In this document: one piece after another, positions 1-15,609 of the stretch
Numbering within the stretch: position 1 is the stretch's first letter
Layout of the letters: each line of letters opens with the position of its first letter
Virus record (IMG/VR): IMGVR_UViG_2703718857_000003
Coordinates: 1-21,487 of that record
Length of the DNA: 21,487 nt
Source: a virus
Lineage: Duplodnaviria > Heunggongvirae > Uroviricota > Caudoviricetes
Reading direction: 5' to 3' (one strand)
Program-made: the position numbers and the translations under genes
The notes under the pieces: generated by a model
What the model was told of the DNA's origin: nothing
The model's input: only the letters and a program-made list of their open reading frames with translations
Databases searched by the model: none

Positions 1-219
1 TTACATCCACATAATTTGCTGCCCTGACGGCAACGGGTGCGGCCTTACGGCGTGGACTTTTCCCGGCTTCACAATGTATCGCTGTACCGACTCATAAGTG
101 ATGAACGTGGCGCTGCAATTCACGTTCTGACACTGGTGATAACGCTCTTTTGTCGTGTCAGTGATATAGCGACTTGTACGCGCATGTGCGGCATGCTGAC
201 ATAAAGGACAATGAAACAT
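1..219 (-). CDS. ogr: Ogr late-gene transcriptional activator (zinc-finger)
   Basis: 72-aa product from internal ATG of the 1..282 ORF (MFHCPLCQHAAHARTSRYITDTTKERYHQCQNVNCSATF...), a Cys-x2-Cys...Cys-x4-Cys zinc-finger pattern; length and sequence match my recollection of P2 Ogr. GAGG Shine-Dalgarno 9 nt upstream of the ATG at 219. Confidence 0.85.
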   Translation of the reverse strand: MFHCPLCQHAAHARTSRYITDTTKERYHQCQNVNCSATFITYESVQRYIVKPGKVHAVRPHPLPSGQQIMWM

Positions 220-253
220 CGCGAGCACCTCTTCCGGTTTTGTTGATGGTGCC

Positions 254-282
254 ATTTTAGTTAATTTACCCTTATAAAACAA
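254..282 (-). promoter_or_regulatory. Candidate sigma70 promoter for ogr (-35 TTGTTT, 17-bp spacer, -10 TAAAAT on minus strand)
   Basis: Read on the minus strand upstream of the ogr ATG: TTGTTT-17 nt-TAAAAT. Hexamer match only; no experimental support. Confidence 0.35.
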
Positions 283-300
283 ACAGATAAAATAAAAACA

Positions 301-1464
301 TCACTCATTATCTTCTGTTTCGTACTCCACATCAGAAAGCCTGACCTCAAGCTCTAAGGACGTCGTGAAGCCGCTATTATTCAGAAAGTGTGTCACCTTA
401 GTGATTGTCCAGTCCTGCTCGTCTATGACGCGCTTAAAGCCAGACACTTTGACCGGTGTTTCCGTGTAAATATCTGCCCGACCGGTAGCCAGGCTGATGG
501 AGAACTCCGCGACGCCCCGTTGCAGTTTGTCCCACTTCGCCTGAGCGGCGCGCATGGCCTGCGCTTTCGTGGCATATACCGTGGTCAGGGCAAAAACGTT
601 GTCAGCCTCACCTGCCATGTATTCACCTTCGCGCGCTTCCGATACTTTTGGCGCTTTCTTCTGCGTGACTGGTTTCGCTTTCGGGTGTTCCAGTGCGCGC
701 AGGTGTTTTTCTTTCTTTTTGCGTTTCAGTTTTACCTTCTGCTTTTGTGGCTTCGGGTCTTTGGTGTGTAACCACTTTGCCGTTACGCCGGTATAGGCTC
801 CACGGTCAGCAATCGCAAAATGATGGCGGTCGCCGTCGCTGCGGGTGATGGTAATCTGCGGGATTTTTTTACCGCTGGCCGTCACCCCCTGCCCCGCTTT
901 GAGAAACAGCAGTTTTCCCATTTTTACCGACACCTCACCGCCGTTGCGTTCTGCAAGACGGGTCAGGAATTTTGCATCAGACTCCTGCGACTGGTCGATG
1001 TGCGGGATTTTAATTCCGGCCAGTGACGGAGCGACACTGGCTTCCAGCCTGTTACGGGAGGCTATCGCCTCAACAATCGCACCGAGCGTGGTGTCATGCC
1101 AGGAGCCTTCACGGCGGGAATTGAGCGTGCCACGAAAATCTGCACTCCGGGCACGGATGGTGACAACATCCGGCGCGCCCCGGTGTTCTACCTCATCAAC
1201 GGTGAATTTCCCTTTGCATACCAGGGCAAAACCTTTCCAGCCGATATACACCGTCAGGACAGCGCCACGAACCGGCAGTTCGACCTGCCCGTCGGCATCG
1301 TTCAGTTCAATATCAAGCTGGTCAGCCTCAAAGCCCCGGTTATCCGTCAGAGTCATGCTCATCAGACGGTCGCTGATATTGCCGGTAATATCCCTGCTGT
1401 CGAGCATCAGCATGTAATCCGGCGTCAGCGTACTGCCTGCATCAAATGTCAGCGCATCCGGCAT
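301..1464 (-). CDS. D: Tail protein D (P2 gpD-like)
   Basis: 387-aa ORF, same length as P2 gpD; position between U and ogr as in P2; start overlaps the U stop. Confidence 0.8.
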   Translation of the reverse strand: MPDALTFDAGSTLTPDYMLMLDSRDITGNISDRLMSMTLTDNRGFEADQLDIELNDADGQVELPVRGAVLTVYIGWKGFALVCKGKFTVDEVEHRGAPDVVTIRARSADFRGTLNSRREGSWHDTTLGAIVEAIASRNRLEASVAPSLAGIKIPHIDQSQESDAKFLTRLAERNGGEVSVKMGKLLFLKAGQGVTASGKKIPQITITRSDGDRHHFAIADRGAYTGVTAKWLHTKDPKPQKQKVKLKRKKKEKHLRALEHPKAKPVTQKKAPKVSEAREGEYMAGEADNVFALTTVYATKAQAMRAAQAKWDKLQRGVAEFSISLATGRADIYTETPVKVSGFKRVIDEQDWTITKVTHFLNNSGFTTSLELEVRLSDVEYETEDNE

Positions 1465-1943
1465 TATCCCACCCCCGTCATCCCCGTGAATTTAGTCGCC
1501 ATACTGCCAGCCTTACCGATGAGCGACTCCGCCTGTTTACCGATATCGCCATAAAGCGCGGCCAGTGATTCGTCAACGCGGGTGAGCGACAGCGTAAAAT
1601 CAATTTTTCGGGGTGTGCCGTCTGCAAAGAAAATACTCCCTGTTTCACTCACCCTGCTGATGACATACATGCCGTAAATCATGCCAGTGCCATCCAGCAA
1701 CGGCCACGCCCGGCCTTCATCTGCCATCAGCCTGAGCGTGGTCATCGTCAGCTTTCCGCCGGTCAGTTCGGGATAAAGCACACCGGCAAGCGTCATGTTT
1801 TCCTCACCCACACCGAGAAACTGGTAGGCCTCCCGTTTACCGATACGGGAATTTGACGGCCAGCGATAATCTGATTCACGCTGCATGGTCTGGTGTGGCA
1901 GCGTCTGGCGCATAAAAACAAACATACCTAACGCGAGCATCAT
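1464..1943 (-). CDS. U: Tail protein U (P2 gpU-like)
   Basis: 159-aa ORF, same length as P2 gpU; synteny T-U-D-ogr. Confidence 0.8.
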   Translation of the reverse strand: MMLALGMFVFMRQTLPHQTMQRESDYRWPSNSRIGKREAYQFLGVGEENMTLAGVLYPELTGGKLTMTTLRLMADEGRAWPLLDGTGMIYGMYVISRVSETGSIFFADGTPRKIDFTLSLTRVDESLAALYGDIGKQAESLIGKAGSMATKFTGMTGVG

Positions 1944-1957
1944 TTTTCGTCACCTCC

Positions 1958-2968
1958 TTAACCGTCATGCATCATGCTGGCACGGGCGCGCGCACGTTTA
2001 TCCCGCTCGTATTTTTCGAGCGCATCCTGTAACTGGCGGTCAAGCTGTGTCCCCGGCTCAGTACCACCCGTCAGGCTGATGTGATATTCGTTTTTACTCT
2101 GGTCTACATAAGAGCGGCCAGCCGGTGCCGTGACCGGCTGATAAGCCTGATAGCCTGCATAAGAGCTGGTCGCCGGAATATAACCACCGGTGCCATACGT
2201 GGCGGCATTAGTCCTTGCGGCGGTCTGGTCAAGTGTGTCTGACTCTTTGTTGATAACACCGAGTTTTTCCAGTACCCAGTCAATACCACTGCGCAGTTTG
2301 TTGAACGCATTAAGCGGCAGCATCAACGCGTCAGCCAGTGCCTGCCCGAACATGACGCCCGTGTCACGGCAACGGTTCAGGGTGTCCTGTGTGGCTTTAA
2401 CCGGGGCAATCAGGTTTTTAAACCACTGCCACGCGGCCTGTAACTTTTCGCCCAGCCAGTCAAACACCGGCTTCAGTGGCGTGAACAGTTCTCCCACCGG
2501 CGCAAATGCCGCTTTCAGCCCTTCCACCACACCGCCAAAGAATGCGCTGACAGGCTCCCAGTATTTACGGATAAGCAACGCCCCGGCGACAATGGCGGCC
2601 ACCACGGCCACAACCGGCCAGCTAATCGCCCCGATGGCCGTCATAACAGCACTGCCAACCGTCGTGAAGATTGCCCCCATTGCGCCTGCTGCCGCGATGA
2701 TGGCATTGATGCCAGTGATAACCGGCCAGGCTACGAGGCCAATGGCACCGATGACAGCAGTCAGCGCCAGTGCGCCACCGGCAATGAGGCCGATGGTTGA
2801 CGCCAGTGATTTGTTTTTCTGGATCCAGCCATCGAGTTTTAACACATACTTTGTGGCCGTCTGTGTGAGATTACGCAGTGCGCCTTCCTGCTGGTCAAAC
2901 AGGTCAGTCCCCACCGCCTCATAAGCAGACTGAAACTCCTTAAAGTCACCGCCGAGGTTATCCTGCAT
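1958..2968 (-). pseudogene. T: Tail tape-measure protein T, 3' fragment only (5' ~480 codons absent)
   Basis: 336-aa ORF with Gly/Ala-rich hydrophobic stretches typical of a tape measure, directly upstream of U. The reading frame is open upstream only as far as the lysB stop codon (3065-3067), so the N-terminal portion of an ~815-aa P2-type T cannot be present. Confidence 0.7.
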
Positions 2969-3018
2969 GATTTTAACCAGCTCTTCCGTTTTACCGTCCG
3001 AGGCTTTCAGCGTGGCGG

Positions 3019-3210
3019 TCAGCTTATCCAGTTTTCGGCACTTAAATCGCCGTTCGTCTGCGGGTCACTGCCCGGCATCGGGCAAAGGCTCACTTTCGGG
3101 CAGGCGTTGGGGACAATCACTGGCGTCGGTGCAGGCGTGGCGCTGGTGCAACCGGCGCACAGCATCAGGCAGGTCAGCACCGTACCAGCGGCGAAAATCT
3201 TCGTTCTCAT
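3019..3210 (-). CDS. lysC: LysC, Rz1-like lipoprotein spanin; 3' end overlaps lysB out of frame
   Basis: Product MRTKIFAAGTVLTCLMLCAGC... has a signal-peptide-like N-terminus with Cys residues (lipobox-like) and a Pro-rich tail; GAGG 8 nt upstream of the ATG at 3210. The maximal ORF extends to 3327, so the start is uncertain. Confidence 0.55.
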   Translation of the reverse strand: MRTKIFAAGTVLTCLMLCAGCTSATPAPTPVIVPNACPKVSLCPMPGSDPQTNGDLSAENWIS

Positions 3211-3490
3211 TAAGTAACCTCGTGATGGTTTTCTCGCGCTGTGCTTCACGTTTCGCGGCGTTCTCCAGTTCCTGACGCAGTGCCACCTGCGCCAGCTCGT
3301 TTTTATCTGCCCTGGTGAGCGCAACATGAAGCTGATTTTTCAGCATGGTGATGGTCGTCTGCTGACCGCTGGCGACGTTGTTCGCCCTGTCCAGCGAGGC
3401 GCGCAGGCTGGCATTTTTGTGTTTCACCAGAAACAGACCGGTCACCGCCAGCGATAACAACACGACCAGCACAATCATCAGCTTTGACAT
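3065..3490 (-). CDS. lysB: LysB, Rz-like spanin
   Basis: 141-aa ORF with an N-terminal transmembrane segment (MSKLMIVLVVLLSLAVTGLFLV) and a coiled-coil-like charged region; length equals P2 LysB; lysC lies in its +1 frame. Confidence 0.75.
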   Translation of the reverse strand: MSKLMIVLVVLLSLAVTGLFLVKHKNASLRASLDRANNVASGQQTTITMLKNQLHVALTRADKNELAQVALRQELENAAKREAQREKTITRLLNENEDFRRWYGADLPDAVRRLHQRHACTDASDCPQRLPESEPLPDAGQ

Positions 3491-3903
3491 AGTTCCCGCC
3501 CCTCAAGACGCTGACGACAGGCTTTACGTATCAGCCGGAAAAACAGCGATACCACGAGATAAATCAGTGCGGTAAAAATCCACCCGGCAGCGACCAGCGA
3601 GATAAACGTCGCCACCATCACCACCAGACCCACCGCCCGTCTGCGCCACGGCACCGGCTGCAAAAACAGCGACGTGACAATCTTCACGACCATCGATTCC
3701 GGCGGCAGCTCCCGCCCGTAGCGCTCCAGTACATACTCAGTGGCATACACGCCGACACCACAGGCAACCACACAGATAACCGTCGCCAGAATCGCCCAGG
3801 TGGCGACAAAACTGACGGCCACGCTCTGCGGGTAAATCAGGGACAGTGCCAGCATCAGCGCCAGCGACACGTTCAGCATCAGTGAAAGGGATAATTTCTT
3901 CAT
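3478..3903 (-). CDS. lysA: LysA, membrane protein of the lysis cassette (lysis timing)
   Basis: 141-aa ORF with several hydrophobic helices; length equals P2 LysA; GGAG Shine-Dalgarno upstream of the ATG. Confidence 0.7.
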   Translation of the reverse strand: MKKLSLSLMLNVSLALMLALSLIYPQSVAVSFVATWAILATVICVVACGVGVYATEYVLERYGRELPPESMVVKIVTSLFLQPVPWRRRAVGLVVMVATFISLVAAGWIFTALIYLVVSLFFRLIRKACRQRLEGRELCQS

Positions 3904-3940
3904 GGTGTTTACTCCGTTTTAAGGGCAGGGGGAAACCGTA

Positions 3941-4438
3941 ATGCCGGTTATTAACACGCATCAGAATATCGCCGCCTTTCTCGACATGCTGGCCGTGTCC
4001 GAAGGGACGGCGAACCATCCGCTGACGAAAAACCGGGGCTATGACGTGATAGTCACCGGACTGGACGGAAAGCCGGAAATTTTCACCGACTACAGTGACC
4101 ACCCGTTCGCACATGGCCGACCGGCGAAAGTGTTTAACCGTCGCGGTGAAAAATCCACGGCATCCGGTCGCTATCAGCAGCTTTACCTGTTCTGGCCGCA
4201 CTACCGCAAACAGCTTGCCCTGCCGGATTTCAGTCCGTTGTCACAGGACAGACTCGCCATTCAGTTGATCCGCGAACGCGGTGCACTGGATGACATCCGG
4301 GCGGGACGCATTGAGCGCGCCATTTCACGCTGTCGCAATATCTGGGCGTCCCTGCCGGGTGCCGGTTACGGTCAGCGTGAGCATTCACTGGAAAAACTGG
4401 TCACCGTCTGGCGTACCGCTGGCGGCGTACCGGCTTAA
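3941..4438 (+). CDS. K: Endolysin K (lambda R-like lytic transglycosylase), inverted relative to the lysis operon
   Basis: 165-aa product MPVINTHQNIAAFLDMLAVSEGT...GYDVIVTG...IWASLPGAGYGQ has clear similarity to lambda R-family lysozymes and the length of P2 gpK. It is on the opposite strand from flanking Y and lysA. Confidence 0.85.
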   Translation: MPVINTHQNIAAFLDMLAVSEGTANHPLTKNRGYDVIVTGLDGKPEIFTDYSDHPFAHGRPAKVFNRRGEKSTASGRYQQLYLFWPHYRKQLALPDFSPLSQDRLAIQLIRERGALDDIRAGRIERAISRCRNIWASLPGAGYGQREHSLEKLVTVWRTAGGVPA

Positions 4439-4696
4439 GCGGCGCTGAATGGCAATCTCAATCACCTGATAACCGGCGATACCCAGCATGGAGCCGATGC
4501 CGCACACCGCAGGCAGTGACAGGTCAGGAAACTGCACCAGAACAACACCGGCAACCATCGAGACAAAACCACCGAGCAACATGCGCCCGATAAACAGACG
4601 CGGGGTGATGGGTTCACCACCGGCAAGCACCTTGCCGACAACAATCAGCACCCCAATCATGAAAAGCGACAGGACGCTTTTTTCTTCTGCTGTCAT
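4385..4696 (-). CDS. Y: Holin Y, with C-terminus altered by the adjacent inversion
   Basis: 103-aa ORF with hydrophobic helices (LSLFMIGVLIVVGKVLAGG..., GFVSMVAGVVLVQF). The last 17 codons run through the 3' end of the inverted K segment. Confidence 0.7.
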   Translation of the reverse strand: MTAEEKSVLSLFMIGVLIVVGKVLAGGEPITPRLFIGRMLLGGFVSMVAGVVLVQFPDLSLPAVCGIGSMLGIAGYQVIEIAIQRRLSRYAASGTPDGDQFFQ

Positions 4697-4699
4697 GCG

Positions 4700-4903
4700 T
4701 TACTCCCACAGATTGACAGTTTCAGCCACGGGCGCGGTCTGAACGTCGGGCAGTTCGACGGCGGTGCCGTGCGGCAGCACCGCACCCAGTTCAGCCAGTC
4801 CCGGATTTGCGGCGAGCACAGCCTCGACCACGCCCTCAGTGCGTCCGTAATACCGGACACAGATGGCGTCGAGCGTGTCGCCCTGTAGCGCAAAGGTCTT
4901 CAT
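4700..4903 (-). CDS. X: Tail protein X (P2 gpX-like, 67 aa)
   Basis: 67 aa from the internal ATG (MKTFALQGDTLDAICVRYYGRTEG...), the length of P2 gpX; synteny L-X-Y. Confidence 0.65.
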   Translation of the reverse strand: MKTFALQGDTLDAICVRYYGRTEGVVEAVLAANPGLAELGAVLPHGTAVELPDVQTAPVAETVNLWE

Positions 4904-5412
4904 CAGATTTGACTCACGATGCAGCGCGGCTTGTCCTGGATGCGCGCCACTGCCCAGCGCATATCCCGCCACAGCTCATCAATGGTGCTGTCAATGCTGT
5001 CGGCCTTCTTGTCGCCCTTGGCACTGGCATCCACGCCGCGGTAACGCTCATAAAGCGACGCGGTCGCCATCGCACACACGGCGCGCTCGTAGTAAAAAAC
5101 TTTGATGCTTTCACCGTCGATGTCGTCCGCCGGAACGTCCGCCAGACGCGTAAAACCGGCGGCAATTGTCTGTTCGCGGTACTCGTACAGCTCCGCATTC
5201 GTCTCCGCCATGCCTGACTTGATGGCCTCACGCAGACGGGCGGGGGCGACGGTCTGCTCAAGGCGCATACGTTCCCGGACGCGCTTCGGGTCGATATCGG
5301 GAAAAAAGAACGTGTTTTTAATCACCGGCTCGTCGCCTGCCGGTTGCGGGATAACCACCGTACCCTCACCGGACACGGGAGCCTCCTTTCGCGGAATAAT
5401 CAGCGTCATCAT
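4903..5412 (-). CDS. L: Head completion/stabilisation protein L
   Basis: 169 aa from internal Met (MMTLIIP...), the length of P2 gpL; synteny M-L-X. Confidence 0.75.
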   Translation of the reverse strand: MMTLIIPRKEAPVSGEGTVVIPQPAGDEPVIKNTFFFPDIDPKRVRERMRLEQTVAPARLREAIKSGMAETNAELYEYREQTIAAGFTRLADVPADDIDGESIKVFYYERAVCAMATASLYERYRGVDASAKGDKKADSIDSTIDELWRDMRWAVARIQDKPRCIVSQI

Positions 5413-5511
5413 GACTACCTCTGAAAAGTCGGGCGGTGGACGCCGGTGTAGTGTCAGGTGATTCACCGTCACTGACCGGCGTGCCGCCCTGGCGCGGGGC
5501 GCATTCGGTTG

Positions 5512-6255
5512 TTAACTGGCTTTCTTTTTCGGGCGTCCACGTTTTGCCGGTGTCACGCTCCGGGTCTTACGCGGAGTGCGGGTGGCCGCTTTGGGCTGCG
5601 GCTCCGGCTTCGGTTTCAGCTCCCGCTCCAGTCGTTCAATCTCTTTTTTGACGCCTGCCTGACAGTCGAGCTGTGTCGCACGTTGCAGGTGCGCCAGCGC
5701 ACCGGCGGCATCACCAGCGTCACGCAGAAACAGACCGGTGATTTTGTGCAGCTTTGCGCGCACTTCATCAGGCATGTCAGCCGTGGCGGTCAGTTCGAGG
5801 GTGTCCGTCAGCAGGCGGGGATTCACAGACTCACCGGCAGCGTGAGCGCGCATGGCCGCAAGCGCCACCTCCTCGGTGAACATGTACGGCGGGGTGCGGC
5901 GGTGTTTACCCGGCATGGTCAGACCGTACTTCAGGGCATAACGGGCAATCTCCAGCGCACCGGCAATATCGCCGGTATCCAGACGCCACAGCATGACCGT
6001 CATCAGAATGTCATCCTGTGCACCTTTGCCCTGCTCCAGCACGCCGTTCACCCACGGCAACCAGAACGGCAGCAGTTCGCGTTTTTTCGCGGCCTTCAGC
6101 TCTTTTGAATAAATTGCTTTCAGTGTGCGCTGGTCTGCGGCCAGCTTGACCAGCATCTGCTCATAGACAGTTGCATGTCGCAGCGGGGCGGCTTCCCGCT
6201 GCGCGGTCATCGCTGCCGAGACCCGCATCATGTGGCGCTGTGCGGGACTCGTCAT
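5512..6255 (-). CDS. M: Terminase endonuclease (small) subunit M
   Basis: 247-aa ORF, the length of P2 gpM; basic Lys/Arg/Pro-rich C-terminus; synteny N-M-L. Confidence 0.8.
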   Translation of the reverse strand: MTSPAQRHMMRVSAAMTAQREAAPLRHATVYEQMLVKLAADQRTLKAIYSKELKAAKKRELLPFWLPWVNGVLEQGKGAQDDILMTVMLWRLDTGDIAGALEIARYALKYGLTMPGKHRRTPPYMFTEEVALAAMRAHAAGESVNPRLLTDTLELTATADMPDEVRAKLHKITGLFLRDAGDAAGALAHLQRATQLDCQAGVKKEIERLERELKPKPEPQPKAATRTPRKTRSVTPAKRGRPKKKAS

Positions 6256-6258
6256 CGG

Positions 6259-7332
6259 TTACGCTCCCGGCTCTGCGGTCGCCTTAGCCGGTGTGGAGAA
6301 ATCACCGACCTTAATTTTTTCCACCAGACAACCGGCGGCGTAGTCTTCCACCACGTAATCAATGTTCATTGACTCGTAGTTCTCCACGCGGTCGAGTTTC
6401 GGGTTTTCCTCAATCACGCGGCGATGGCTGTCATCCATGTAGTAGATGGACAGGTTTTCCAGCTTCGTGATGAGCATCGCATCCGCCGGGAAGTACGGGA
6501 CGCGTACCGCCGGCAGGTTACCGATGCGTTTCTGACTGATGATGACGTCAGCGGCCAGCATTTCGCTGTTGTCCTGCTCCTTGTTGACGATGGGGAAATA
6601 CTTGTCCGCCAGTAGCTGACGCCCCACAATCACCACAAGGTCAGGGTCTTCCTGATACCACGGCTCAATCAGGTTGTTGGTCGCATCCATCACCAGTGCA
6701 TCGAGGCTGGCATAATCACCGCCCTTACCCACGCGGATGACCTCAGAGGTCGTGTGACCTTCCTCGTCCGTAACCTTGCTCATCACGCGCGCCGGGGCTT
6801 CATTGCGGTATTTCTGCAGCCAGCCGACCGCCACATCCTGCAGCATCGGATTGCTGCTGCGGTCAGAGGTTTCTGCACGCTTCACACCGTTAAAACCGGC
6901 CATGATGAAATCAAGGGACTGGCGTTTGATAATGGCGTTACGGACACGGAGCTGGAAATCCTGATAACGCGCCCACAGGTCAAGCGTTTTGTAGCGGATA
7001 TAAAAATCGAAGTTAATCTGGTCGCATTCGTACTTGTTTGACGCCAGCTTCGAGAAGTCCTTCGGCTGACGCTCGGTGCCACCGGCGGTGTCGGTGGTGC
7101 TGGCGATGGAGCCGGTGACACCGATACCAATTTTTTCCCCTTTCATTTCGCTGACCGGCACAATGTTGATGCGGGTCAGAAAGTCAGAGGACTCCTGCAT
7201 GGTGTTCATCAGGGTCTGGGTGACCGACGGTTCAACGGTGAATTTTTTCGACACATCACCGGCGTCGATGCCGTTCAGTTCGGCAACACGGGACAGGTAA
7301 GCATTAAATTTAAAGCGGGTTTCCTGGCGCAT
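6259..7332 (-). CDS. N: Major capsid protein N
   Basis: 357-aa ORF, the length of P2 gpN; synteny O-N-M. Confidence 0.85.
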   Translation of the reverse strand: MRQETRFKFNAYLSRVAELNGIDAGDVSKKFTVEPSVTQTLMNTMQESSDFLTRINIVPVSEMKGEKIGIGVTGSIASTTDTAGGTERQPKDFSKLASNKYECDQINFDFYIRYKTLDLWARYQDFQLRVRNAIIKRQSLDFIMAGFNGVKRAETSDRSSNPMLQDVAVGWLQKYRNEAPARVMSKVTDEEGHTTSEVIRVGKGGDYASLDALVMDATNNLIEPWYQEDPDLVVIVGRQLLADKYFPIVNKEQDNSEMLAADVIISQKRIGNLPAVRVPYFPADAMLITKLENLSIYYMDDSHRRVIEENPKLDRVENYESMNIDYVVEDYAAGCLVEKIKVGDFSTPAKATAEPGA

Positions 7333-7390
7333 AGTTTTTCCTGAAATTAAGGGTTAATCGTGAAGGTTTTCCCGGACTGACTGACGCCGG

Positions 7391-8245
7391 TCAGCAGTTC
7401 GTCATCAGGGCGTCACCGCCACCACCGGTGGCCTTGCTGCGGCGCTGCTGGGTCAGACTTTCGGTGTGGTCGAGACTGTTTTTCAGGCGGGTGAATGCCT
7501 GGCTGGTTTCATCCGCCCTGTCAGTCACCTCCTGCTTAAGTGAGGAAAAGGCGGTTTCCATCTCAGCGAGGCGCTGCTCAGTGGCGCTCAGTTTTTCCTG
7601 CACATGTTCAGCGACAGCGGTCACCGCTTCATGCACGTCATTCAGACGGGCATCATCGCTGGCCTGTTTGCGGCCAAAAATGGACTTCACCTTTTCGGTC
7701 AGGGCGGTGAACACGGTTTCAGGCAGGTCTTCAAATTCCAGCTCAACAGGCGTTGCCACTGAAATCAGGTTTTCAGGGCTTAATTTGAAGCGGTTCAGGG
7801 GGTTGTGTTTTGCCGTGCGGCAGAATTCCAGGTATTCCGTGCCGAGGCTTGCCGGGTCATCGGTGACGGCCAGCCCCACCAGATAACATTTGCCGGTATT
7901 GGCAAAGTTCGGCTGAATTTCCATTGAGGTATAGACCTTCTGCGCGGCCTTGTTCATCGCGATAAGGTCATCGGTCGGGGTGATTTTCGCAAACAGCGCC
8001 CATTTGCCTTTCAGCGCCGAATCATCGTCAATCTTTTCGGCCTTCAGTTCGGCCACATCGCCATAACGCTTAAAAATACCGTCAGGCAGGATGCCGCGCA
8101 GATGTTCCAGGTTAATGCGGCAACCATAGACACGCGGGTCAAAGGTTTCGGCCATTTCCTGAATATCCTGCGCACTGATGACACGCCCGTCACAGGTGTC
8201 ACCCTCAACGCCGATACGAAAGAATTTTGAGACTTTTTTTGCCAT
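7391..8245 (-). CDS. O: Capsid scaffolding protein O
   Basis: 284 aa from the internal ATG at 8245 (MAKKVSKFFRIGVEGD...), the length of P2 gpO; coiled-coil-like C-terminus; divergent from P. Confidence 0.8.
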   Translation of the reverse strand: MAKKVSKFFRIGVEGDTCDGRVISAQDIQEMAETFDPRVYGCRINLEHLRGILPDGIFKRYGDVAELKAEKIDDDSALKGKWALFAKITPTDDLIAMNKAAQKVYTSMEIQPNFANTGKCYLVGLAVTDDPASLGTEYLEFCRTAKHNPLNRFKLSPENLISVATPVELEFEDLPETVFTALTEKVKSIFGRKQASDDARLNDVHEAVTAVAEHVQEKLSATEQRLAEMETAFSSLKQEVTDRADETSQAFTRLKNSLDHTESLTQQRRSKATGGGGDALMTNC

Positions 8246-8418
8246 TGTCAGGAGTCCTGAATAGTGATTAGAGGAGTCACATGTCGGCATCAGTTTCCCG
8301 ACGATGCGCATCCTCCGCCATCAGTCCCGGATGGCTTATCACTGACACAACAGCACCTTAGCGAATCGCGGGGCGCGACTCAGTAGCCTTGCCGTGTATT
8401 CATCACGGCGAGGTATTC
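8246..8418. promoter_or_regulatory. Divergent late-promoter region between O and P (expected Ogr-dependent)
   Basis: Position only: the intergenic space between divergent O and P start codons is where P2 carries its O- and P-operon late promoters. I could not identify the activator dyad with confidence. Confidence 0.3.
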
Positions 8419-9656
8419 ATGACCATCACCACAGACACCACTCTTTTACACGACCCGCGTCGTCAGGCGGCGCTGCTGTACTGGCAGGGGTTTTCCGTGC
8501 CGCAGATTGCCGCCATGTTGCAGATGAAACGCCCGACAGTGCAGAGCTGGAAACAGCGCGACGGCTGGGACAGCGTTGCCCCCATCAGCCGTGTCGAAAT
8601 GAGTCTGGAAGCGCGGCTGACCCAGCTCATCATCAAACCACAGAAAACCGGCGGTGACTTCAAGGAAATTGACCTGCTGGGACGCCAGATTGAACGACTG
8701 GCACGGGTCAACCGCTACAGCCAGACCGGCAACGAGGCAGACCTTAATCCGAACGTCGCTACCCGTTCTGGTCGGGTGAACTGTTCAACCGGGGACGCGC
8801 CAGCGCCGCCGAACGCGTGGAAATCGACGTCAGTCATAACGCACTTGCCGGAGGTCTTCTCTGTGCGGACGGCCAGTGGCGGCAGATTGTCACCATTGAG
8901 GACGCCCTGAAAGGTGGCTGCACGCTGTTCGACATTGAGCAGCTTAAACGCGAAAACAGCGCCGACGATTTTAAAAACCTGTTCATGTGTGAATTTGTTG
9001 ACGACAAGGCGTCGGTGTTCCCGTTCGAGGAGCTGCAACGCTGCATGGTCGACACGCTGGAAGAATGGGAAGACTATGCGCCGTTTGCCGCCAATCCGTT
9101 CGGCTCACGTCCGGTATGGATTGGTTACGACCCGTCACACCGTGGCGACAGTGCCGGATGCGTGGTGCTGGCACCGCCGGTGGTGGCCGGTGGCAAATTC
9201 AGAATACTTGAGCGTCACCAGTGGAAAGGCATGGACTTTGCCACCCAGGCTGAATCCATCCGCGAACTCACCGAAAAATACAACGTCGAATACATCGGTA
9301 TTGATGCCACCGGCCTCGGTGTCGGCGTGTTCCAGCTCGTGCGCTCGTTCTATCCCGCCGCGCGCGATATCCGCTACACGCCGGAAATGAAAACCGCAAT
9401 GGTGCTCAAGGCAAAAGACGTTATTCGCCGTGGCTGTCTGGAATATGACGTCAGCGCCACCGACATCACCAGCTCGTTTATGGCTATCCGCAAGACCATG
9501 ACCAGCAGCGGACGCAGCGCCACCTATGAGGCCAGCCGCAGCGAGGAAGCCAGCCACGCCGACCTCGCCTGGGCGACCATGCACGCCCTGTTAAATGAGC
9601 CACTCACCGCGGGTATCAGCACTCCGCTGACATCCACCATTCTGGAGTTTTACTGA
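8419..9656 (+). pseudogene. P: Large terminase (ATPase) subunit P, internally deleted and frameshifted
   Basis: The N-terminal part (MTITTDTTLLHDPRRQAALLYWQGF...NPNVA) is in one frame and the C-terminal RNaseH-like nuclease part (YPFWSGELF...VWIGYDPSH...IGIDATGLG...HADLAWA) is in another; the frames overlap between 8658 and 8910. The total span is ~412 codons versus ~590 for P2 gpP, and no Walker A/B ATPase segment is present. Confidence 0.7.
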
Positions 9657-10684
9657 TGAGCAAGAAAAAAGGGAAAACACCGCGACTAGCGGCAAAAAAA
9701 ATGACCGCCAGCGCCCCGAAAATGGAGGCATTCACCTTTGGTGAACCGGTGCCGGTACTCGACCGCCGTGACATTCTGGATTACGTCGAGTGCATCAGTA
9801 ACGGCAGATGGTATGAGCCACCGGTCAGCTTTACCGGTCTGGCAAAAAGCCTGCGTGCTGCCGTACATCACAGCTCACCGATTTACGTCAAACGTAATAT
9901 TCTGGCTTCAACGTTTATTCCGCACCCGTGGCTTTCCCAGCAGGATTTCAGCCGCTTTGTGCTGGATTTTCTGGTGTTCGGCAATGCGTTTCTGGAAAAG
10001 CGTTACAGCACCACCGGTAAGGTCATCAGACTGGAAACCTCACCGGCAAAATATACCCGCCGTGGGGTGGAAGAGGATGTTTACTGGTGGGTGCCGTCCT
10101 TCAACGAACCGACAGCCTTCGCGCCCGGCTCCGTATTTCACCTGCTGGAGCCGGATATCAATCAGGAGCTGTACGGCCTGCCGGAATATCTCAGCGCCCT
10201 TAACTCTGCCTGGCTGAATGAGTCGGCCACGCTGTTCCGCCGCAAGTATTATGAAAACGGCGCACATGCCGGATACATCATGTACGTCACCGATGCCGTG
10301 CAGGACCGCAACGATATCGAAATGCTTCGCGAAAACATGGTTAAGTCGAAAGGCCGCAATAACTTTAAAAATCTGTTTCTCTATGCCCCACAGGGGAAAG
10401 CCGACGGCATTAAAATTATCCCGCTCAGTGAAGTGGCAACGAAGGACGATTTTTTTAATATCAAAAAAGCCAGCGCCGCTGACCTGCTGGACGCGCACCG
10501 CATCCCCTTTCAGTTGATGGGGGGCAAGCCGGAGAACGTCGGGTCGCTGGGTGATATTGAGAAAGTGGCAAAGGTCTTTGTCCGCAATGAGCTTATCCCG
10601 TTACAGGACAGGATCCGCGAGATAAACGGCTGGCTCGGTCAGGAGGTCATCCGCTTTAAAGATTACAGTCTAGAATCTAATTAA
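9656..10684 (+). CDS. Q: Portal protein Q
   Basis: 342-aa ORF, close to the 344 aa of P2 gpQ; start overlaps the P stop (ATGA); synteny P-Q next to cos. Confidence 0.85.
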   Translation: MSKKKGKTPRLAAKKMTASAPKMEAFTFGEPVPVLDRRDILDYVECISNGRWYEPPVSFTGLAKSLRAAVHHSSPIYVKRNILASTFIPHPWLSQQDFSRFVLDFLVFGNAFLEKRYSTTGKVIRLETSPAKYTRRGVEEDVYWWVPSFNEPTAFAPGSVFHLLEPDINQELYGLPEYLSALNSAWLNESATLFRRKYYENGAHAGYIMYVTDAVQDRNDIEMLRENMVKSKGRNNFKNLFLYAPQGKADGIKIIPLSEVATKDDFFNIKKASAADLLDAHRIPFQLMGGKPENVGSLGDIEKVAKVFVRNELIPLQDRIREINGWLGQEVIRFKDYSLESN

Positions 10685-10694
10685 GTACCCTTAG

Positions 10695-10712
10695 CGCCGT
10701 CTCCAGACGGCG
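10695..10712. terminator. Bidirectional hairpin between convergent Q and the cargo operon
   Basis: Perfect 7-bp GC-rich stem CGCCGTC/GACGGCG with loop TCCA, 11 nt after the Q stop and between the two convergent gene ends; followed by T-rich sequence on the plus strand. Confidence 0.45.
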
Positions 10713-10779
10713 TGATTCTATGCAATCCAGGCAAGATTAACCCCCAACACCTTCAATTACTATATGGTTTAATAGAAAT

Positions 10780-11469
10780 TCAATCTTTAACTTCAATATA
10801 TGAAGAAGAAAACCATATAGATTTTTTCCCATTTATGTATTTAGAAACAGGCGAGCCATCTTCGTTCATTGCCTCAGCACTAAATGTTACATAATACATT
10901 CCTTTTTCTTTTGTCGAAACAAGATAGTTCAAGCGTCTTTCGGCAGAGATAGGAACGGATATATCATATAAAGGTATATTTTTAGCTTTTCCTTGCGAGC
11001 TACTTTCTTCATTAAGAACAGCCAACTCCTCATAATAATTTGGATAAAAAACTTCCGTAGCGACTTGCTTTGCACCGGCCGATAAAACACGACTAACAGC
11101 AAGGGACTTGTTATTAAGCTTCACATAAATTCGCTCATTACTGTTATTCCTAATAGTTACAATAGGCTTTATATAAAACACATCATCGATTTTAACAACA
11201 TTAACGTCAACATTAAAAAATGTCGATTCTGTATTTCTAATTCTATTTCTTAACTCTATAAGATCAGCTTCTGCCTTATCCCTTTGGTGCAAAACATCAA
11301 AAGTATATCCTCCCCACACAAGTGTCAAAACAGCGCACAATGACATCACGACGTTATTAAACTGATCGTGTGTTCTGTAAATATCTTTGAATTTTAAAAT
11401 TAATAATAGACATGCTATGAATAGCATGCCTATTATCAGCCAGTGTTCTTTTACAAATTCAAAGTTCAT
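10780..11469 (-). CDS. Uncharacterised membrane protein with two N-terminal TM helices and a beta-rich soluble C-terminal domain (cargo)
   Basis: 229-aa ORF; hydrophobic segments WLIIGMLFIACLLLIL and VVMSLCAVLTLVWGGYTF, then a Ser/Asn/Lys/Val/Tyr-rich soluble domain. AT-rich codon usage; start 2 nt after the stop of the upstream ORF. No family recognised by eye. Confidence 0.6.
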   Translation of the reverse strand: MNFEFVKEHWLIIGMLFIACLLLILKFKDIYRTHDQFNNVVMSLCAVLTLVWGGYTFDVLHQRDKAEADLIELRNRIRNTESTFFNVDVNVVKIDDVFYIKPIVTIRNNSNERIYVKLNNKSLAVSRVLSAGAKQVATEVFYPNYYEELAVLNEESSSQGKAKNIPLYDISVPISAERRLNYLVSTKEKGMYYVTFSAEAMNEDGSPVSKYINGKKSIWFSSSYIEVKD

Positions 11470-11471
11470 AG

Positions 11472-12554
11472 TTAGTCACTCGCATGCCTCGCATCACCAT
11501 CTTCAGGGAAATTGATCCCCTGTCCGATCTCACGGTTCGTTGGACGAGCAGAAACAAAGCCTCTATTTTGTCTTTTTAAACGCAACTCTAGAACTTGAGA
11601 AACTCTATCAAAGTTTAATCCATCCATTGCAACCTCTTTTTTCCCTTCAATATGAGATCGAAGTTCCTCACTTATACGATTATCAACCGTTGAAGCGAAG
11701 GCTACATCATGATTAAAAATGGCCCCCATAATTAACATAAACGCAATTCCGGCCTTTCTATTATTTGTTTTAAATTGTAGCCAAACATCCCCCGGAGACA
11801 TCAACATTTGTTGAGCAGTCAAGGATAACTCTCCATTATTAGAAAGTCTTTCCATCTCAAACTGAACAACTTCGTTTGTATACTCGCCATCAAACTCTTC
11901 GCCAATTAATAGCGCAAGTACCTGCACTCTATCGACCAGCTCAGCCAGCTGCTTAAGAGTATGATGCCGAATGGCTTCTGCTTGCTCGACTCTTAAGCTA
12001 GTACAGAAAATATTATCCGTTATAAAGAATGACATTAACCAATGCAGTACTTCTTCTGACTTCCCGCCCAAAGAGAATACGGTCTGGTATGCAGTAAACG
12101 ATTTCTGAAGAGCTAATGGAATCTCTCGTCTGCGAACTGGCTCTCCCCATGTGACTCTACGTCTTACATGAAACCCTTCATTATTACCTAAACATTCACG
12201 CTCAAAATACGCGGAAGATGCAATAACTCCAGGAACAACCATATCACCTGACAAAGTGAAAACAACATCACCGACCTGCATATCTATGAGGAAATTTTCA
12301 ATTTGGGTATGAATATTTCTTGAACCAATAGTATCTAACCCATCAACCTTTTGATTAATATTTTCATGGTTAATTTCATCATTAAAGTCAATTTGATCTG
12401 GACTTAACCTATCCAAGTGAGCAGTAGCAACCATATTGCGTTCAAGGAAGTCTGCAAAATATCTATACTTAATCCCAGGTCTAACGACCCAACACTTTAC
12501 ATTTAAATCAACATGTTGTACTGAAATAGCTCTTTGTGATGAAGTTCCAAGCAT
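11472..12554 (-). CDS. Uncharacterised soluble protein, first gene of the two-gene cargo operon
   Basis: Long AT-rich ORF; 361 aa from the first ATG at 12554, or 366 aa from the TTG at 12572. No Walker, HNH, DxD-nucleotidyltransferase or other motif recognised by eye. Confidence 0.55.
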   Translation of the reverse strand: MLGTSSQRAISVQHVDLNVKCWVVRPGIKYRYFADFLERNMVATAHLDRLSPDQIDFNDEINHENINQKVDGLDTIGSRNIHTQIENFLIDMQVGDVVFTLSGDMVVPGVIASSAYFERECLGNNEGFHVRRRVTWGEPVRRREIPLALQKSFTAYQTVFSLGGKSEEVLHWLMSFFITDNIFCTSLRVEQAEAIRHHTLKQLAELVDRVQVLALLIGEEFDGEYTNEVVQFEMERLSNNGELSLTAQQMLMSPGDVWLQFKTNNRKAGIAFMLIMGAIFNHDVAFASTVDNRISEELRSHIEGKKEVAMDGLNFDRVSQVLELRLKRQNRGFVSARPTNREIGQGINFPEDGDARHASD

Positions 12555-12778
12555 AGCTGATCCATAATTCAAAAAATTTTACGCATTTTACATATTTTTA
12601 TTTAAGACTCTAGAGCGTTAGGAATGATGAATCGCTTCAACAGATTATTTTTTGTGCAGATAGTGTGCTTAAACCAACTCATCGTAACGAAAGCACTCGC
12701 CTGAATCGTAAAGATAACATCTCATGACTCGATTCATAGGCTAATAGTATTATGCAATGGTCGTTAATGGAGCGCGCA

Positions 12779-12797
12779 GTGCTTTCCCCGCCTCGCC
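12779..12797. other. cos site: 19-nt cohesive-end sequence GGCGAGGCGGGGAAAGCAC (read on minus strand)
   Basis: Exact match, on the minus strand, to the 19-nt cohesive-end sequence as I recall it for phage P2 (not verified against a database). Followed towards the Q side by TGCGCGCT and then AT-rich cargo. A GC hairpin plus T-run (12797-12820) abuts it on the A side. Confidence 0.6.
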
Positions 12798-12939
12798 CGC
12801 CCGCTTCGTGGGGCGGTTTTAATGCAGATGCATTATGAGCCCTGAGCTGCGCCTAACGTGACACAGTTCACGAGAAAAATAGGAATTATCAAATGCAATT
12901 TCATGCAGATAGAGAGGCATGAGATCCCGAAGCTTATAT

Positions 12940-14292
12940 TCAACCCTCTGCCGAAATATTTCTTTGGAGAAATGCTCTAATTTTTTGCCTGAAAGCCTCA
13001 CATTCATCAGGCTTTAACCTCTCAAGGTATTCAAAAATCCTAGTTTCATCCCAGCCGTTGTTATAGGTTTTCACTACCCCTCGATAAACTTGCTTATCAA
13101 GTTTATCGTTACCTCTAGTTGTAACTCTCGGGATCGATTCATCTTGGCCGTATGCTTGATAGAAATCCTTCTCAACGCTTTGGAAAGGTATGCATAAAAT
13201 ATTTTCACCTCGAGCATACCTTTGACCTAATTGATCTCCGTCTAACACTGAGATCACATTCTGTTGAGTCGTGAGAAAGCTCTCTCTCTCATTACGACGC
13301 ATTAAATCAATGACATTAGTTCCTCCACCAACATATATTATTTTATATTCGTAGAAGTAATCATTCCCAGGAGCATTAATTATATATTCTAAGAAATTTT
13401 GCAGAACTTCATCTTCAGTAAGAATGTACTTATCCCATCCTTTAAATCCAAAAAGCGTACTTTTTATATAATTATATGATCGATTTGTAATTGTAGTTCC
13501 AGCATCACCTTCGCACATATAGTACAATTCATCATCATTCAGCGTTTGCATTAAAGCAAGTGAATGTGTTGTGAATACAATATTCACCGAGTGTCTCTGA
13601 CAATATTTCCTTAGCACTGCTATAAGATGGACTTGCGCCGAAGAGTCTAGTGATATATCTATCTCATCTATGACAATGAATTTTCTTTTGAGCTCAATCA
13701 TTCTAAATAAATTCAAAATAAAATACTCACCCGAGCTAAAGTAATCCTCCCTTATGTATGTTCCGTTCTCATTCAATCTGAAATAGAAAATTTCATTTTT
13801 TACAGAAAATGCTTTAAGATTATTGTAAGAAGAAGACTGATATACCTCATTGAGTATATTTATCAAATCCTCGGGAACGCTATAGCTTTCAAACGCAATA
13901 CTTTTTCTAAGTTCAGTATCAATTTTACTAAGTGTTGGGAAGTTATTGAACCTCATTCCATGAGGAATGGGCAACTCGACATAAAGATTGGATTTTATAT
14001 CTGCTGGAATTATTTGCTTAGTATCTATTACCTTCAAATTCTCATCATAGACATATACTATATCTTGATCATTAATATTATATACTATACTACTGTCAGG
14101 ATTGAATATATATCTAGAAGATGTCTTTATGAATGTATCTGCTGATTGTAAATTTTTAATTGCTTTGATTAGCGTTGTCTTTCCAGCACCGTTCTTTCCT
14201 ACAATGCAAGTCAGTTTATTTTCAGAAAGATCAATAGCAAATGACATATGTTCAACATGCTGGATTTTCGAGATCTCAATATTTATTTTCAT
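12940..14292 (-). CDS. OLD-family ABC-type ATPase with C-terminal Toprim-like domain (retron-associated effector candidate)
   Basis: 450 aa; Walker A GKNGAGKTT near the N-terminus, Walker B FIVIDEIDISLD, H-loop-like VFTTHS; C-terminal ILTEDEV and VLDGDQLG resemble the Toprim Glu and DxD motifs. Start ATG is 1 nt after the RT stop, indicating translational coupling. Confidence 0.7.
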   Translation of the reverse strand: MKINIEISKIQHVEHMSFAIDLSENKLTCIVGKNGAGKTTLIKAIKNLQSADTFIKTSSRYIFNPDSSIVYNINDQDIVYVYDENLKVIDTKQIIPADIKSNLYVELPIPHGMRFNNFPTLSKIDTELRKSIAFESYSVPEDLINILNEVYQSSSYNNLKAFSVKNEIFYFRLNENGTYIREDYFSSGEYFILNLFRMIELKRKFIVIDEIDISLDSSAQVHLIAVLRKYCQRHSVNIVFTTHSLALMQTLNDDELYYMCEGDAGTTITNRSYNYIKSTLFGFKGWDKYILTEDEVLQNFLEYIINAPGNDYFYEYKIIYVGGGTNVIDLMRRNERESFLTTQQNVISVLDGDQLGQRYARGENILCIPFQSVEKDFYQAYGQDESIPRVTTRGNDKLDKQVYRGVVKTYNNGWDETRIFEYLERLKPDECEAFRQKIRAFLQRNISAEG

Positions 14293-14293
14293 T

Positions 14294-15283
14294 TTAATTT
14301 ACATTCTTGTAAAAAAGCATATCGACAATCGTATTTCCGTATTTTCTCTTTAGCTTATCGAGATAACTCTTATCAATTGTGTTTATATGATTCAAAAGAC
14401 CAGAAACTGTATTAACGCCCTTTTCCAAGATCTCACTATCATTCAATCCGCTAGTTTTAACCTTAGGATCTTTTATTATAGAATCTATAAATTTATCTTT
14501 ATCCGTTACATAAAAATGAATCAAATGCTCAAGCTTTCTTTTTATTTTAATATCAACAGAGACTATCTGAGACGGTAAAATAACCATCCCCAGCAGCTTA
14601 ATCTTACTGCCTTTTTTAATCAATTTAGTTTTTGCTGAGTTTAGTTTGAAATGTCCCTTCCCAAACTCACCCAGCAGGTCACTTACTACAGAATGAATAT
14701 TCTCAAAGCCCTCATCATTTTCAGAGGAAATAATAATATCATCTGAATAGCGTGTGAATATATATTCATGGTTAATACAATATTGCTGCATCTCAACATC
14801 AAAGTCATATAAACATGCATTGCTGAAAGCTGGTGATGTCGGGAACCCTACAGGCAACGAATTATCGATAATAATATAATCTAAAATTTTATCCAAGTGT
14901 ATATTTAAATCGGAAATGGGAACGTTCGATAAGTTATCAACTAAAACTGATCGTGCATATTCACGAGTTATCGATGGGAAAAAGCTTTTAATATCAGTAT
15001 TGAAGAATATCTTACTACAGGCGTGAAGTTTTACTGCATCATAAGTGCTGCTTCCTTTTCTATACGAAAACACAACATCCTTATTTACTTTCAAGTATGA
15101 AAGAACAAATTCATTTATGAATTTGTGATACTCTTTTAGTTTAGAAGTGGGCTCAGCAATTAACCTTTCATCAAAGGTTATAAATTTAGTTTGTTGAAAT
15201 GGTTCAAACGAAAGAAAGTTTTGAAAGGAATCTTTTTCGAAGAATGCAATATTGAAGGCTTTTTCGAGACTAAGGGGTTTCAT
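14294..15283 (-). CDS. Retron-type reverse transcriptase
   Basis: 329 aa with RT motifs in order: NTDIKSFFPSI (domain 2), LPVGFPTSPAFSNA (domain 4), FTRYSDDIIIS (YxDD catalytic box). Motif order and spacing parallel retron Ec86 RT as I recall it (NIDLEDFFPSL / LPQGAPSSPKLANL / YTRYADDLTLS); size is typical of retron RTs. Confidence 0.8.
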   Translation of the reverse strand: MKPLSLEKAFNIAFFEKDSFQNFLSFEPFQQTKFITFDERLIAEPTSKLKEYHKFINEFVLSYLKVNKDVVFSYRKGSSTYDAVKLHACSKIFFNTDIKSFFPSITREYARSVLVDNLSNVPISDLNIHLDKILDYIIIDNSLPVGFPTSPAFSNACLYDFDVEMQQYCINHEYIFTRYSDDIIISSENDEGFENIHSVVSDLLGEFGKGHFKLNSAKTKLIKKGSKIKLLGMVILPSQIVSVDIKIKRKLEHLIHFYVTDKDKFIDSIIKDPKVKTSGLNDSEILEKGVNTVSGLLNHINTIDKSYLDKLKRKYGNTIVDMLFYKNVN

Positions 15284-15289
15284 CGTTGG

Positions 15290-15440
15290 CTGAGCTTTTG
15301 TTTTTTGAGTTGAATGGATTCTAAGATGAATGCTTTAACTCTCAGTCTTTCCTCACCCCAGACACCCTCCCTTCGCAGGCTTTACTTCTTGTACATACCT
15401 TCTCTCGAAAGAGAAGGCAGTACAAGAGCAACACTATATA
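15290..15440 (-). ncRNA. Candidate retron msr/msd non-coding RNA region (boundaries uncertain)
   Basis: Non-coding stretch immediately upstream of the RT containing a long interrupted hairpin at 15387-15427 (8-bp stem TCTTGTAC/GTACAAGA, internal loop, 7-bp stem CCTTCTC/GAGAAGG, loop TCGAAA), as expected for an msd stem. I could not identify a1/a2 flanking repeats by eye. Confidence 0.3.
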
Positions 15441-15456
15441 AAGGCCTGTAGAGGCC
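15441..15456 (-). terminator. Possible intrinsic terminator downstream of A (minus strand)
   Basis: 5-bp GC stem GGCCT/AGGCC with loop GTAG, followed on the minus strand by TTTATATA. The stem is short, and it could instead be part of the ncRNA. Confidence 0.25.
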
Positions 15457-15609
15457 AACATTTATGACTGGAGATGCTCCTAGTCGTTGGCATAAAAACA
15501 CTTTAAACCAGATTATGAGCATTTACAACATTTCAAGCCGTCGAACGCAGCCCCAATCAGAAAAGAACTCACACGGCCATCATAACATCATGATTTAGAT
15601 GGATATAAA

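Follow-up and report, generated by a model that had tools for sequence, protein, structure and literature searches.

The P2-like prophage that fills the 21,487-bp window analysed here, bounded by the stop codons of ogr, at position 1, and of int, at position 21487, carries its endolysin gene K back to front. The arrangement is best explained by a single conservative inversion of ~0.52 kb that took in the full K translation unit and that represents ordinary decay of a defective prophage, not a functional device. We put the probability of this reading at about 85%.

Alignment to P2 (NC_001895) showed that positions 3035-3919 and 4437-7000 of the window are collinear with the phage at ~97.5% identity, and that 3914-4442 matches as the reverse complement with collinear flanks. 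A pairwise comparison with the Y-K-lysA region of P2 had been proposed in a preliminary description made from the letters of the window, which had placed K on the plus strand amid minus-strand Y, lysA, lysB and lysC; both the open reading frame layout and the alignment bear this out. The features of the region, together with the junctions of two further lesions, are as follows.

3019-3327, minus strand: lysC' (Rz1-like o-spanin), C-terminal third to half lost, few T codons fused on
3035/3036: junction of a 10,562-bp deletion with one end in mid-lysC and the other in mid-T, 2-bp microhomology (TC); determined against PEC395 and, for the right side, against L009
3065-3490, minus strand: lysB (Rz-like i-spanin), intact, 141 aa
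3478-3903, minus strand: lysA, intact, 141 aa (PF28015, LysA)
3904-4384, minus strand: untranslated antisense-K stretch, 481 nt of the late transcript, from the Y' stop to the lysA start
3914-3919: left inversion junction, CCGTTT-T, P2-collinear through 3919, inverted-P2 match from 3918
3920-4436 (517 bp) to 3918-4438 (521 bp): inverted block, K and 21-23 nt of upstream leader, from BLAST and base-by-base alignment against P2
3920-3940, plus strand: ribosome-binding leader of K, AGGGGGAAACCGTA-ATG, once the last Y codons, moved along with K
3941-4438, plus strand: K endolysin, intact 165-codon open reading frame between Y and lysA
4385-4696, minus strand: holin Y', 103 aa, residues 1-86 identical to P2 Y
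4437-4442: right inversion junction, TT-AAGCGG, inverted-P2 match through 4438, collinear from 4437
4700-4972, minus strand: X
8759-8761: junction of a 535-bp deletion in the terminase large-subunit gene P, CTA 3-bp microhomology within an imperfect repeat

All five genes of the P2 cassette Y-K-lysA-lysB-lysC, which belongs to the P_O late operon, are present at ~97% nucleotide identity. The window differs from that cassette in that K lies on the opposite strand, the overlap of the Y stop with the K start and the coupling of K to lysA are gone, Y has a new 17-residue tail, and lysC is cut by a separate deletion.

The ancestral state is preserved in an intact twin, L009 (GCA_054732435.1, DBLRQZ010000003.1), which has a 93-aa Y, a same-strand K, lysC, R, S, the tail genes and a 590-aa terminase. 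Once 3920-4436 (or, equivalently, 3918-4438) is flipped back, positions 3036-8750 of the window are 100.000% identical to L009 over 5,715 bp with 0 gaps. The inversion was therefore exact and conservative, and no substitution has accrued since. In the restored sequence, which reads ...TTTAAGGGCAGGGGGAAACCGTAATG around the K leader, the 93-codon Y overlaps the start of K in a TAATG stop/start, and lysA begins 14 nt past the K stop with its GGAG ribosome-binding site in place. The preliminary description had anticipated the 93 codons, the overlap and the canonical placing of K before the lysA ribosome-binding site. It was mistaken about the end of the restored Y, which is ...IQRRFKGRGKP (P2 ...FKGRGKQ) and not ...IQRRGNRNAGY, and its block of about 3931-4438 has the correct right end and a left end 11-13 bp away from the actual one at 3918-3920. 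An exact-protein look-up placed the identical LysB in nine other genomic contexts, eight of them with an intact 590-aa terminase; all nine have the canonical same-strand order Y(93 aa)-K-lysA-lysB-lysC-R-S.

Base-by-base inspection puts the left breakpoint somewhere from 3917/3918 to 3919/3920 and the right one from 4436/4437 to 4438/4439, an ambiguity of 2 bp per end that stems from the 2-bp microhomology. The block comprises K, its Shine-Dalgarno sequence and 21-23 nt that once belonged to the 3' end of Y. The ancestral left site, CCGTTTAAGCCGG, and the ancestral right site, GCCCTTAAAGCGG, are the same in P2, PEC395, JX21CE8 and L009, and the breaks fall at CCGTTT^AAGCCGG at the K stop codon and at GCCCTTA^AAGCGG within the final Y codons. 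The homology between them is 2 bp when exact (TT/AA), or 5/6 when read as the imperfect inverted repeat CCGTTT/AAGCGG. No substantial inverted repeat was found at the two junctions beyond this one, and the earlier remark that they have none is essentially right. By calculation, at least 2 bp of microhomology is expected at ~16% of random junctions, and the observed homology is not statistically distinguishable from chance.

The right junction creates a CTTAAG palindrome, and relative to the perfect TTTAAG/CTTAAA hexamers that flanked K in the ancestor the exchange is shifted by 1 nt. This motif occurs three times in the restored sequence between 3000 and 5000, at 3917 and 4433 (the inversion ends) and at 3041, 5 bp from the junction of the large deletion. 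The third copy was noticed post hoc and its position is probably due to chance.

The K protein is identical to P2 gpK (ENLYS_BPP2), and at each of the eight nucleotides where the genes differ the change is synonymous, which reflects purifying selection on K older than the flip. K, LysA and LysB gave no matches at the Pfam default threshold, and their identities are those of the annotated P2 genes that they match. In Y', residues 1-86 align with the 86-position model of PF04550 (E = 3.7e-42), and the entire holin domain is kept. The Y frame enters the antisense 3' end of K by 54 nt and ends ...IQRRLSRYAASGTPDGDQFFQ, exactly as had been read at the outset. The 17 residues taken from antisense K, LSRYAASGTPDGDQFFQ, stand in place of FKGRGK(Q/P) (FKGRGKP before the flip, FKGRGKQ in P2), and by count the net charge of the tail falls from +5 in Y to +1 in Y'. 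The altered holin is on record as WP_061354870.1, KXR56501.1 and HBH9087851.1. The breakpoint is 3' of the GGAG ribosome-binding site of lysA, which has therefore stayed with its gene. The Pfam LysC match of LysC' covers only model positions 1-42 of 69, and a complete spanin pair is not encoded.

K is now antisense to P_O, the sole known promoter serving it, and is no longer co-oriented with the other genes of its P2-type operon; all genes from 1 to ~8300 except K lie on the opposite strand. No sigma-70-like promoter was predicted in 3000-5000, and hence none for K in its new orientation, in keeping with the preliminary view that K lacks a late promoter there. The Ogr-type motif TGT-N12-ACA would be expected 4.7 times by chance in the window and occurs once, at 3418-3435, some 500 bp upstream of K; this match does not count as evidence. 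With K off the Ogr-dependent P_O transcript and with no predicted promoter, endolysin should therefore not be made during late transcription.

The translational coupling of Y, K and lysA has been replaced by 481 nt of untranslated antisense RNA, which would probably lower expression of lysA and lysB. Rho-dependent polarity on both genes is plausible; no intrinsic terminator was predicted within 3904-4384. In phage lambda, the C-terminal domain of S is regulatory. Y' keeps the entire membrane core with a new, less basic cytoplasmic tail and, by analogy, may still form lethal holes, perhaps with altered timing. As the annotation of the P2 record (NC_001895) marks K, the endolysin, and likewise Y as essential for lysis, the cassette as it stands should not lyse cells.

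The lysis cassette was struck twice, since K is flipped and LysC truncated, and the damage extends beyond it. The 10,562-bp deletion takes out R, S, V, W, J, I, H, G, FI, FII, E, E' and the 5' part of T besides truncating lysC, and the 535-bp deletion frameshifts terminase P after ~114 codons. The preliminary description overlooked this deletion of 10.6 kb, the truncated lysC and the frameshifted terminase. With the tail genes deleted and the terminase frameshifted, the prophage would be non-viable whatever the state of K. For this reason the compromised lysis that had been suspected matters little: where tails and terminase are missing, the lysis defect has no further effect on phage production, and its selective meaning, if any, would lie in survival of the host.

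Among complete E. coli genomes, none matched at least 80% of a query across the lysC-T deletion junction, and the only matches to the terminase junction query were split by the missing ~535 bp. Junction queries and exact open reading frame look-ups found no intermediates with only one or two of the three lesions. The one match to the exact T' open reading frame is an unrelated split T gene in ERR10121322, and the truncated terminase product is not on record.

All the other late genes (Q, O, N, M, L, X, lysA, lysB, U, D and ogr) have survived intact, as has the early region. In the cargo slot lie a type I-B retron (RT_I-B, E = 6.5e-110; ATPase-Toprim_I-B, E = 3.3e-179) and a second module consisting of a 360-aa protein with DUF8426 and PDC-S02 matches and a 229-aa protein. 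An Rfam scan for retron msr/msd or other RNAs returned none at the gathering threshold. The DUF8426/PDC-S02 two-gene module is common across P2-like prophages. Four sister prophages with the same cargo (L018, L021, L023 and L024) are independently deleted remnants that have kept the early region and the cargo and have lost most late genes.

Positions 1-14696 of the window are 100% identical to contig LOPQ01000018.1 of GCA_001576505.1, which a figure legend in PMC9774513 gives as E. coli G65, from a cow, ST540. In the G65 genome, ogr adjoins pflB-focA-ycaO, and pflB/pflA is also the insertion site of the related complete prophage in strain PEC395. No shared stretch of at least 10 nt that could serve as an att core was found in the PEC395 flanking stretches compared.

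The exact 103-aa Y' is on record in three contigs: LOPQ01000018.1 of G65, DAESSZ010000004.1 of GCA_019228025.1, and a Logan assembly of SRR15116329. Both junctions are present in each of them, and the region is 100% identical to the window. GCA_019228025.1 differs from the window by 21 SNPs, all within 43-826 (ogr and the 3' end of D), and its flank is yegQ, as against pflB in G65. The carriers thus come from two or more isolates and were assembled by two or more pipelines. The position of the element beside pflB in G65 and its identity from position 827 on in the second assembly are in keeping with vertical inheritance at a fixed site. The inverted arrangement was found in none of the 1,571 complete E. 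coli genomes and none of the 114 phage records that hold the region, and it is therefore not the native phage arrangement. Nor did the junction strings occur in GTDB species representatives, in IMG/VR or in JGI metagenomes. The inversion is a derived character, private to one small E. coli lineage.

A flip of this kind could be an error of assembly or scaffolding that was never present in cells, the more so as the window comes from a draft short-read assembly (LOPQ01). This is very unlikely. Two NCBI assemblies that stem from separate projects have identical junctions, one of them set apart from the window by its SNPs and its different flank, and so has the Logan assembly, which was built by a different pipeline; the contigs are continuous across both junctions, and no repeat longer than 2-6 bp lies there to mislead an assembler. 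That several assemblies share the arrangement might instead suggest that inverted K is native to a functional P2-like sub-lineage, an idea to which we attach practically no credence. The carriers all have one and the same prophage, tail-less and terminase-frameshifted, with 100% identity over the region, and the related prophages, in which a native inverted K had been named as a finding that would speak against the flip, provide no example of it: the nine contexts with identical LysB are all canonical, one of them 100% identical at the nucleotide level, and neither the 114 phage records nor IMG/VR yielded the inverted form.

It is also highly improbable that the block is a programmed invertible segment, a lysis on/off switch worked at quasi-sites that have a 2-bp core by a Cin/Gin/Pin-type invertase of the sort found beside the tail-fibre genes in relatives. 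Some points favour the idea: the exchange neither gained nor lost a base, its 2-bp TT/AA overlap resembles serine-invertase chemistry, the block is exactly one gene plus its ribosome-binding site, and in PEC395, a relative, a 'recombinase family protein' is encoded in the tail-fibre region, which the window has deleted. Like the known phage segments (Mu G/Gin, P1 C/Cin, e14 P/Pin and some P2-like tail-fibre switches), it is a discrete block inverted with respect to relatives. However, those segments carry tail-fibre C-termini, not a lysis gene, and the window lacks their 26-bp crossover sites, flanking inverted repeats, invertase gene and any sign of switching. An invertase-recognition site had been suggested as something to look for at the junctions; set against the Hin/Gin/Cin/Pin consensus, the 26-bp junction sites agree with it at 2-4 of 18 positions, no better than background, where the mean is 4.3. 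None of the open reading frames of the window encodes an invertase, an overlap of 2 bp arises by chance at the ~16% of junctions calculated above, and at the assembly level one orientation is seen in the three carriers and only the other in more than 1,500 genomes and 114 phages. That the TTTAAG/CTTAAA pair around K is a cryptic recombination site toggling lysis is still less likely than a common origin of all three lesions, which is taken up below.

Other enzymatic routes were considered and set aside. Cutting and flipping at TTAA by a restriction-type enzyme with palindromic overhangs predicts TTT/AAA, and the window has TTTT and AA. There is no IS or transposase in or near the block to mediate an inversion. 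Action of the phage integrase on pseudo-att sites is unlikely a priori, and neither junction has arm-type sites.

The reading that we prefer is a single conservative flip of the complete K translation unit (Shine-Dalgarno sequence, open reading frame and stop codon), with its ends in short AT-rich spots: CCGTTT^AAGCC, which lies at the K stop, and CCCTTA^AAGCG, which lies in the last Y codons. Its most likely cause is an illegitimate recombination, independent of RecA, between short inverted microhomologies. This may have proceeded by breakage and reunion of a topoisomerase type or by two template switches at a replication fork; these mechanisms are indistinguishable from the sequence because 2-bp microhomology is expected at ~16% of junctions. 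Breakpoints at short inverted homology, with no recombinase site and with a reciprocal, conservative product, are what such an event leaves behind. Together with the two deletions, all three very recent and of the microhomology type, the inversion has made a defective prophage of an intact phage; int, the immunity and replication genes and the anti-phage cargo (the type I-B retron and the PDC-S02-like pair) are retained. Two observations sit less easily with this account. Three rare lesions with no substitution relative to an intact twin are more clustered than simple neutral decay predicts, and the lossless flip of a whole gene with its ribosome-binding site is unusual for two random breaks.

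The clustering raises the question of a common origin for the inversion and the two deletions, in a single complex replication event (MMBIR-like serial template switching) or one episode of DNA damage within the prophage. We consider this unlikely, although it has points in its favour: 2-3 bp of microhomology at all three junctions, the location of all three within 5.7 kb of present sequence, the lack of a single point substitution against L009 across 5.7 kb, and the failure to find any genome with only one or two of the lesions. On the other hand, three separate events under selection for disarmament would leave the same picture, the many different independent deletions in the sister prophages indicate that lesions are frequent here, and sampling of the lineage is thin (3-4 samples). 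It is similarly doubtful, and if anything a little more so, that the three lesions reflect either one multi-template-switch (MMBIR/chromoanasynthesis-like) accident or one burst of strongly selected disarmament. A single event is compatible with an illegitimate flip as part of prophage decay and refines its timing; if true, the element has been caught almost at the moment of 'grounding'.

Inversion between short inverted repeats is a known process in E. coli. The spontaneous cases of Schofield et al. share three traits with the present one: ends that fall at a very short imperfect inverted repeat, a conservative outcome and no recombinase site. They differ in the length of the repeat, 12-23 bp in the classic cases as against 2 bp exact (5/6) here, and in that the exchange in the window is 1 nt off the register of the perfect TTTAAG/CTTAAA pair. 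In comparison with template-switch spacer inversions (PMC8604942), the inverted spacer of ~517 bp is far longer than hairpin-loop spacers.

Prophages are zones of frequent inversions and deletions (PMC6379469). The element shares with the defective ('grounded' or cryptic) prophages described there inactivating lesions in morphogenesis and packaging genes, the retention of int, immunity, replication genes and defence cargo, and sister prophages that show other deletions. It departs from them in that one lesion is a gene-sized conservative inversion and not the usual deletion or IS insertion, and in that the lesions are so recent that a substitution-free intact twin survives.

The inversion represents neither a new mechanism nor a new system; it is a fresh instance of prophage decay by illegitimate rearrangement. 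Such decay by deletion and rearrangement, with useful cargo kept, was reportedly described for defective prophages by Bobay et al. in 2014. The value of the case lies in its being a clean natural example, as the substitution-free twin over 5.7 kb lets each lesion be set to the base. It also illustrates that a small, repeat-less conservative inversion in a bacterial genome can be real and need not be an assembly error. Prophage-completeness callers and annotation pipelines may be misled in this case, where K appears intact and RefSeq has an accession for the 103-aa holin. The clustering of three recent lesions fits either strong, rapid selection for disarmament or one complex event. Since sister prophages with the same cargo have been independently deleted, the G65 element is a freshly grounded prophage of a repeatedly decaying type. 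It offers a snapshot of early prophage domestication, in which lysis, tail and packaging functions are lost and the integrase, immunity, replication and anti-phage cargo are kept.

Two deletions were identified in the late genes of the window. The larger one removed 10,562 bp and joined the middle of lysC to the middle of the tape measure gene T at 3035-3036, with a microhomology of 2 bp at the junction. It affects 1958-3327, where an ORF of 336 codons (T') and a truncated LysC are left over, and the baseplate, tail-fibre, sheath and tube genes were lost in their entirety. The smaller one is a frameshifting deletion of 535 bp in the terminase large-subunit gene P (8419-9656), with its junction at 8759-8761 showing a 3-bp microhomology (CTA) within an imperfect repeat (ACGTCGCTA / ACGACGCCTA). 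This P-gene deletion was absent from every complete E. coli genome searched.

After the inverted block carrying the endolysin gene K had been flipped back in silico, the hexamer TTTAAG/CTTAAA occurred only three times between 3000 and 5000, at 3041, 3917 and 4433 of the restored coordinates. All three lie no more than 5 bp from a rearrangement breakpoint: two mark the limits of the inversion, and the third is near the right-hand boundary of the 10.6-kb deletion. The proximity was spotted post hoc and is probably a coincidence. At the right inversion junction (window 4435-4440), the rearrangement gave rise to an AflII-type palindrome, CTTAAG, which the ancestral sequence lacks and which would suit as a diagnostic restriction or PCR marker of the inverted allele.

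Position 1 of the window is exactly the ogr stop codon and position 21487 exactly that of int. Evidently, the window was cut along the gene boundaries of the predicted prophage, and the att sites therefore lie outside it. In the sister prophage L024 (GCA_017728655.1), the int end adjoins pflA, and the ogr end is flanked by yegQ-baeR-baeS instead of pflB. L004 (GCA_019228025.1), the second assembly with the K inversion, has the same flank at its ogr end; the locus examined excludes the int end. All 21 SNPs between L004 and the window cluster at 43-826, falling within ogr and the 3'-terminal part of D. This pattern suggests homologous recombination with the resident ogrK/D' remnant at yegQ, which could have taken the form of a large chromosomal inversion approximately symmetric about the terminus; a mis-join by the assembler could also account for it.

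The cargo comprises the following genes:

10780-12554, minus strand, two-gene module encoding proteins of 360 aa and 229 aa
12940-14292, minus strand, retron ATPase-Toprim (E = 3.3e-179)
14294-15283, minus strand, retron reverse transcriptase (PADLOC RT_I-B, E = 6.5e-110)

The type I-B retron (12940-15283) occupies the P2 cargo hotspot. No msr/msd RNA was found at the Rfam gathering threshold, and the retron ncRNA is presumably positioned at 15283-15610. The 360-aa protein has a weak match to DUF8426 and a match to the PADLOC candidate PDC-S02 (E = 2.5e-12); no family was assigned to the 229-aa protein. In the assembly collection, 561 index blocks contain a protein identical to the 360-aa one, and among the matches listed, all ten contexts were P2-like prophages, some of them at pflA and others at yegR/yegQ.

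Four sister prophages with the same cargo (L018, L021, L023 and L024) carry large late-region deletions, each different and independent. Some of them have ogr joined directly to the cargo, and one has lost K through J, with the holin shortened to 81 aa. Through repeated grounding, these prophages have kept their early region and defence cargo.
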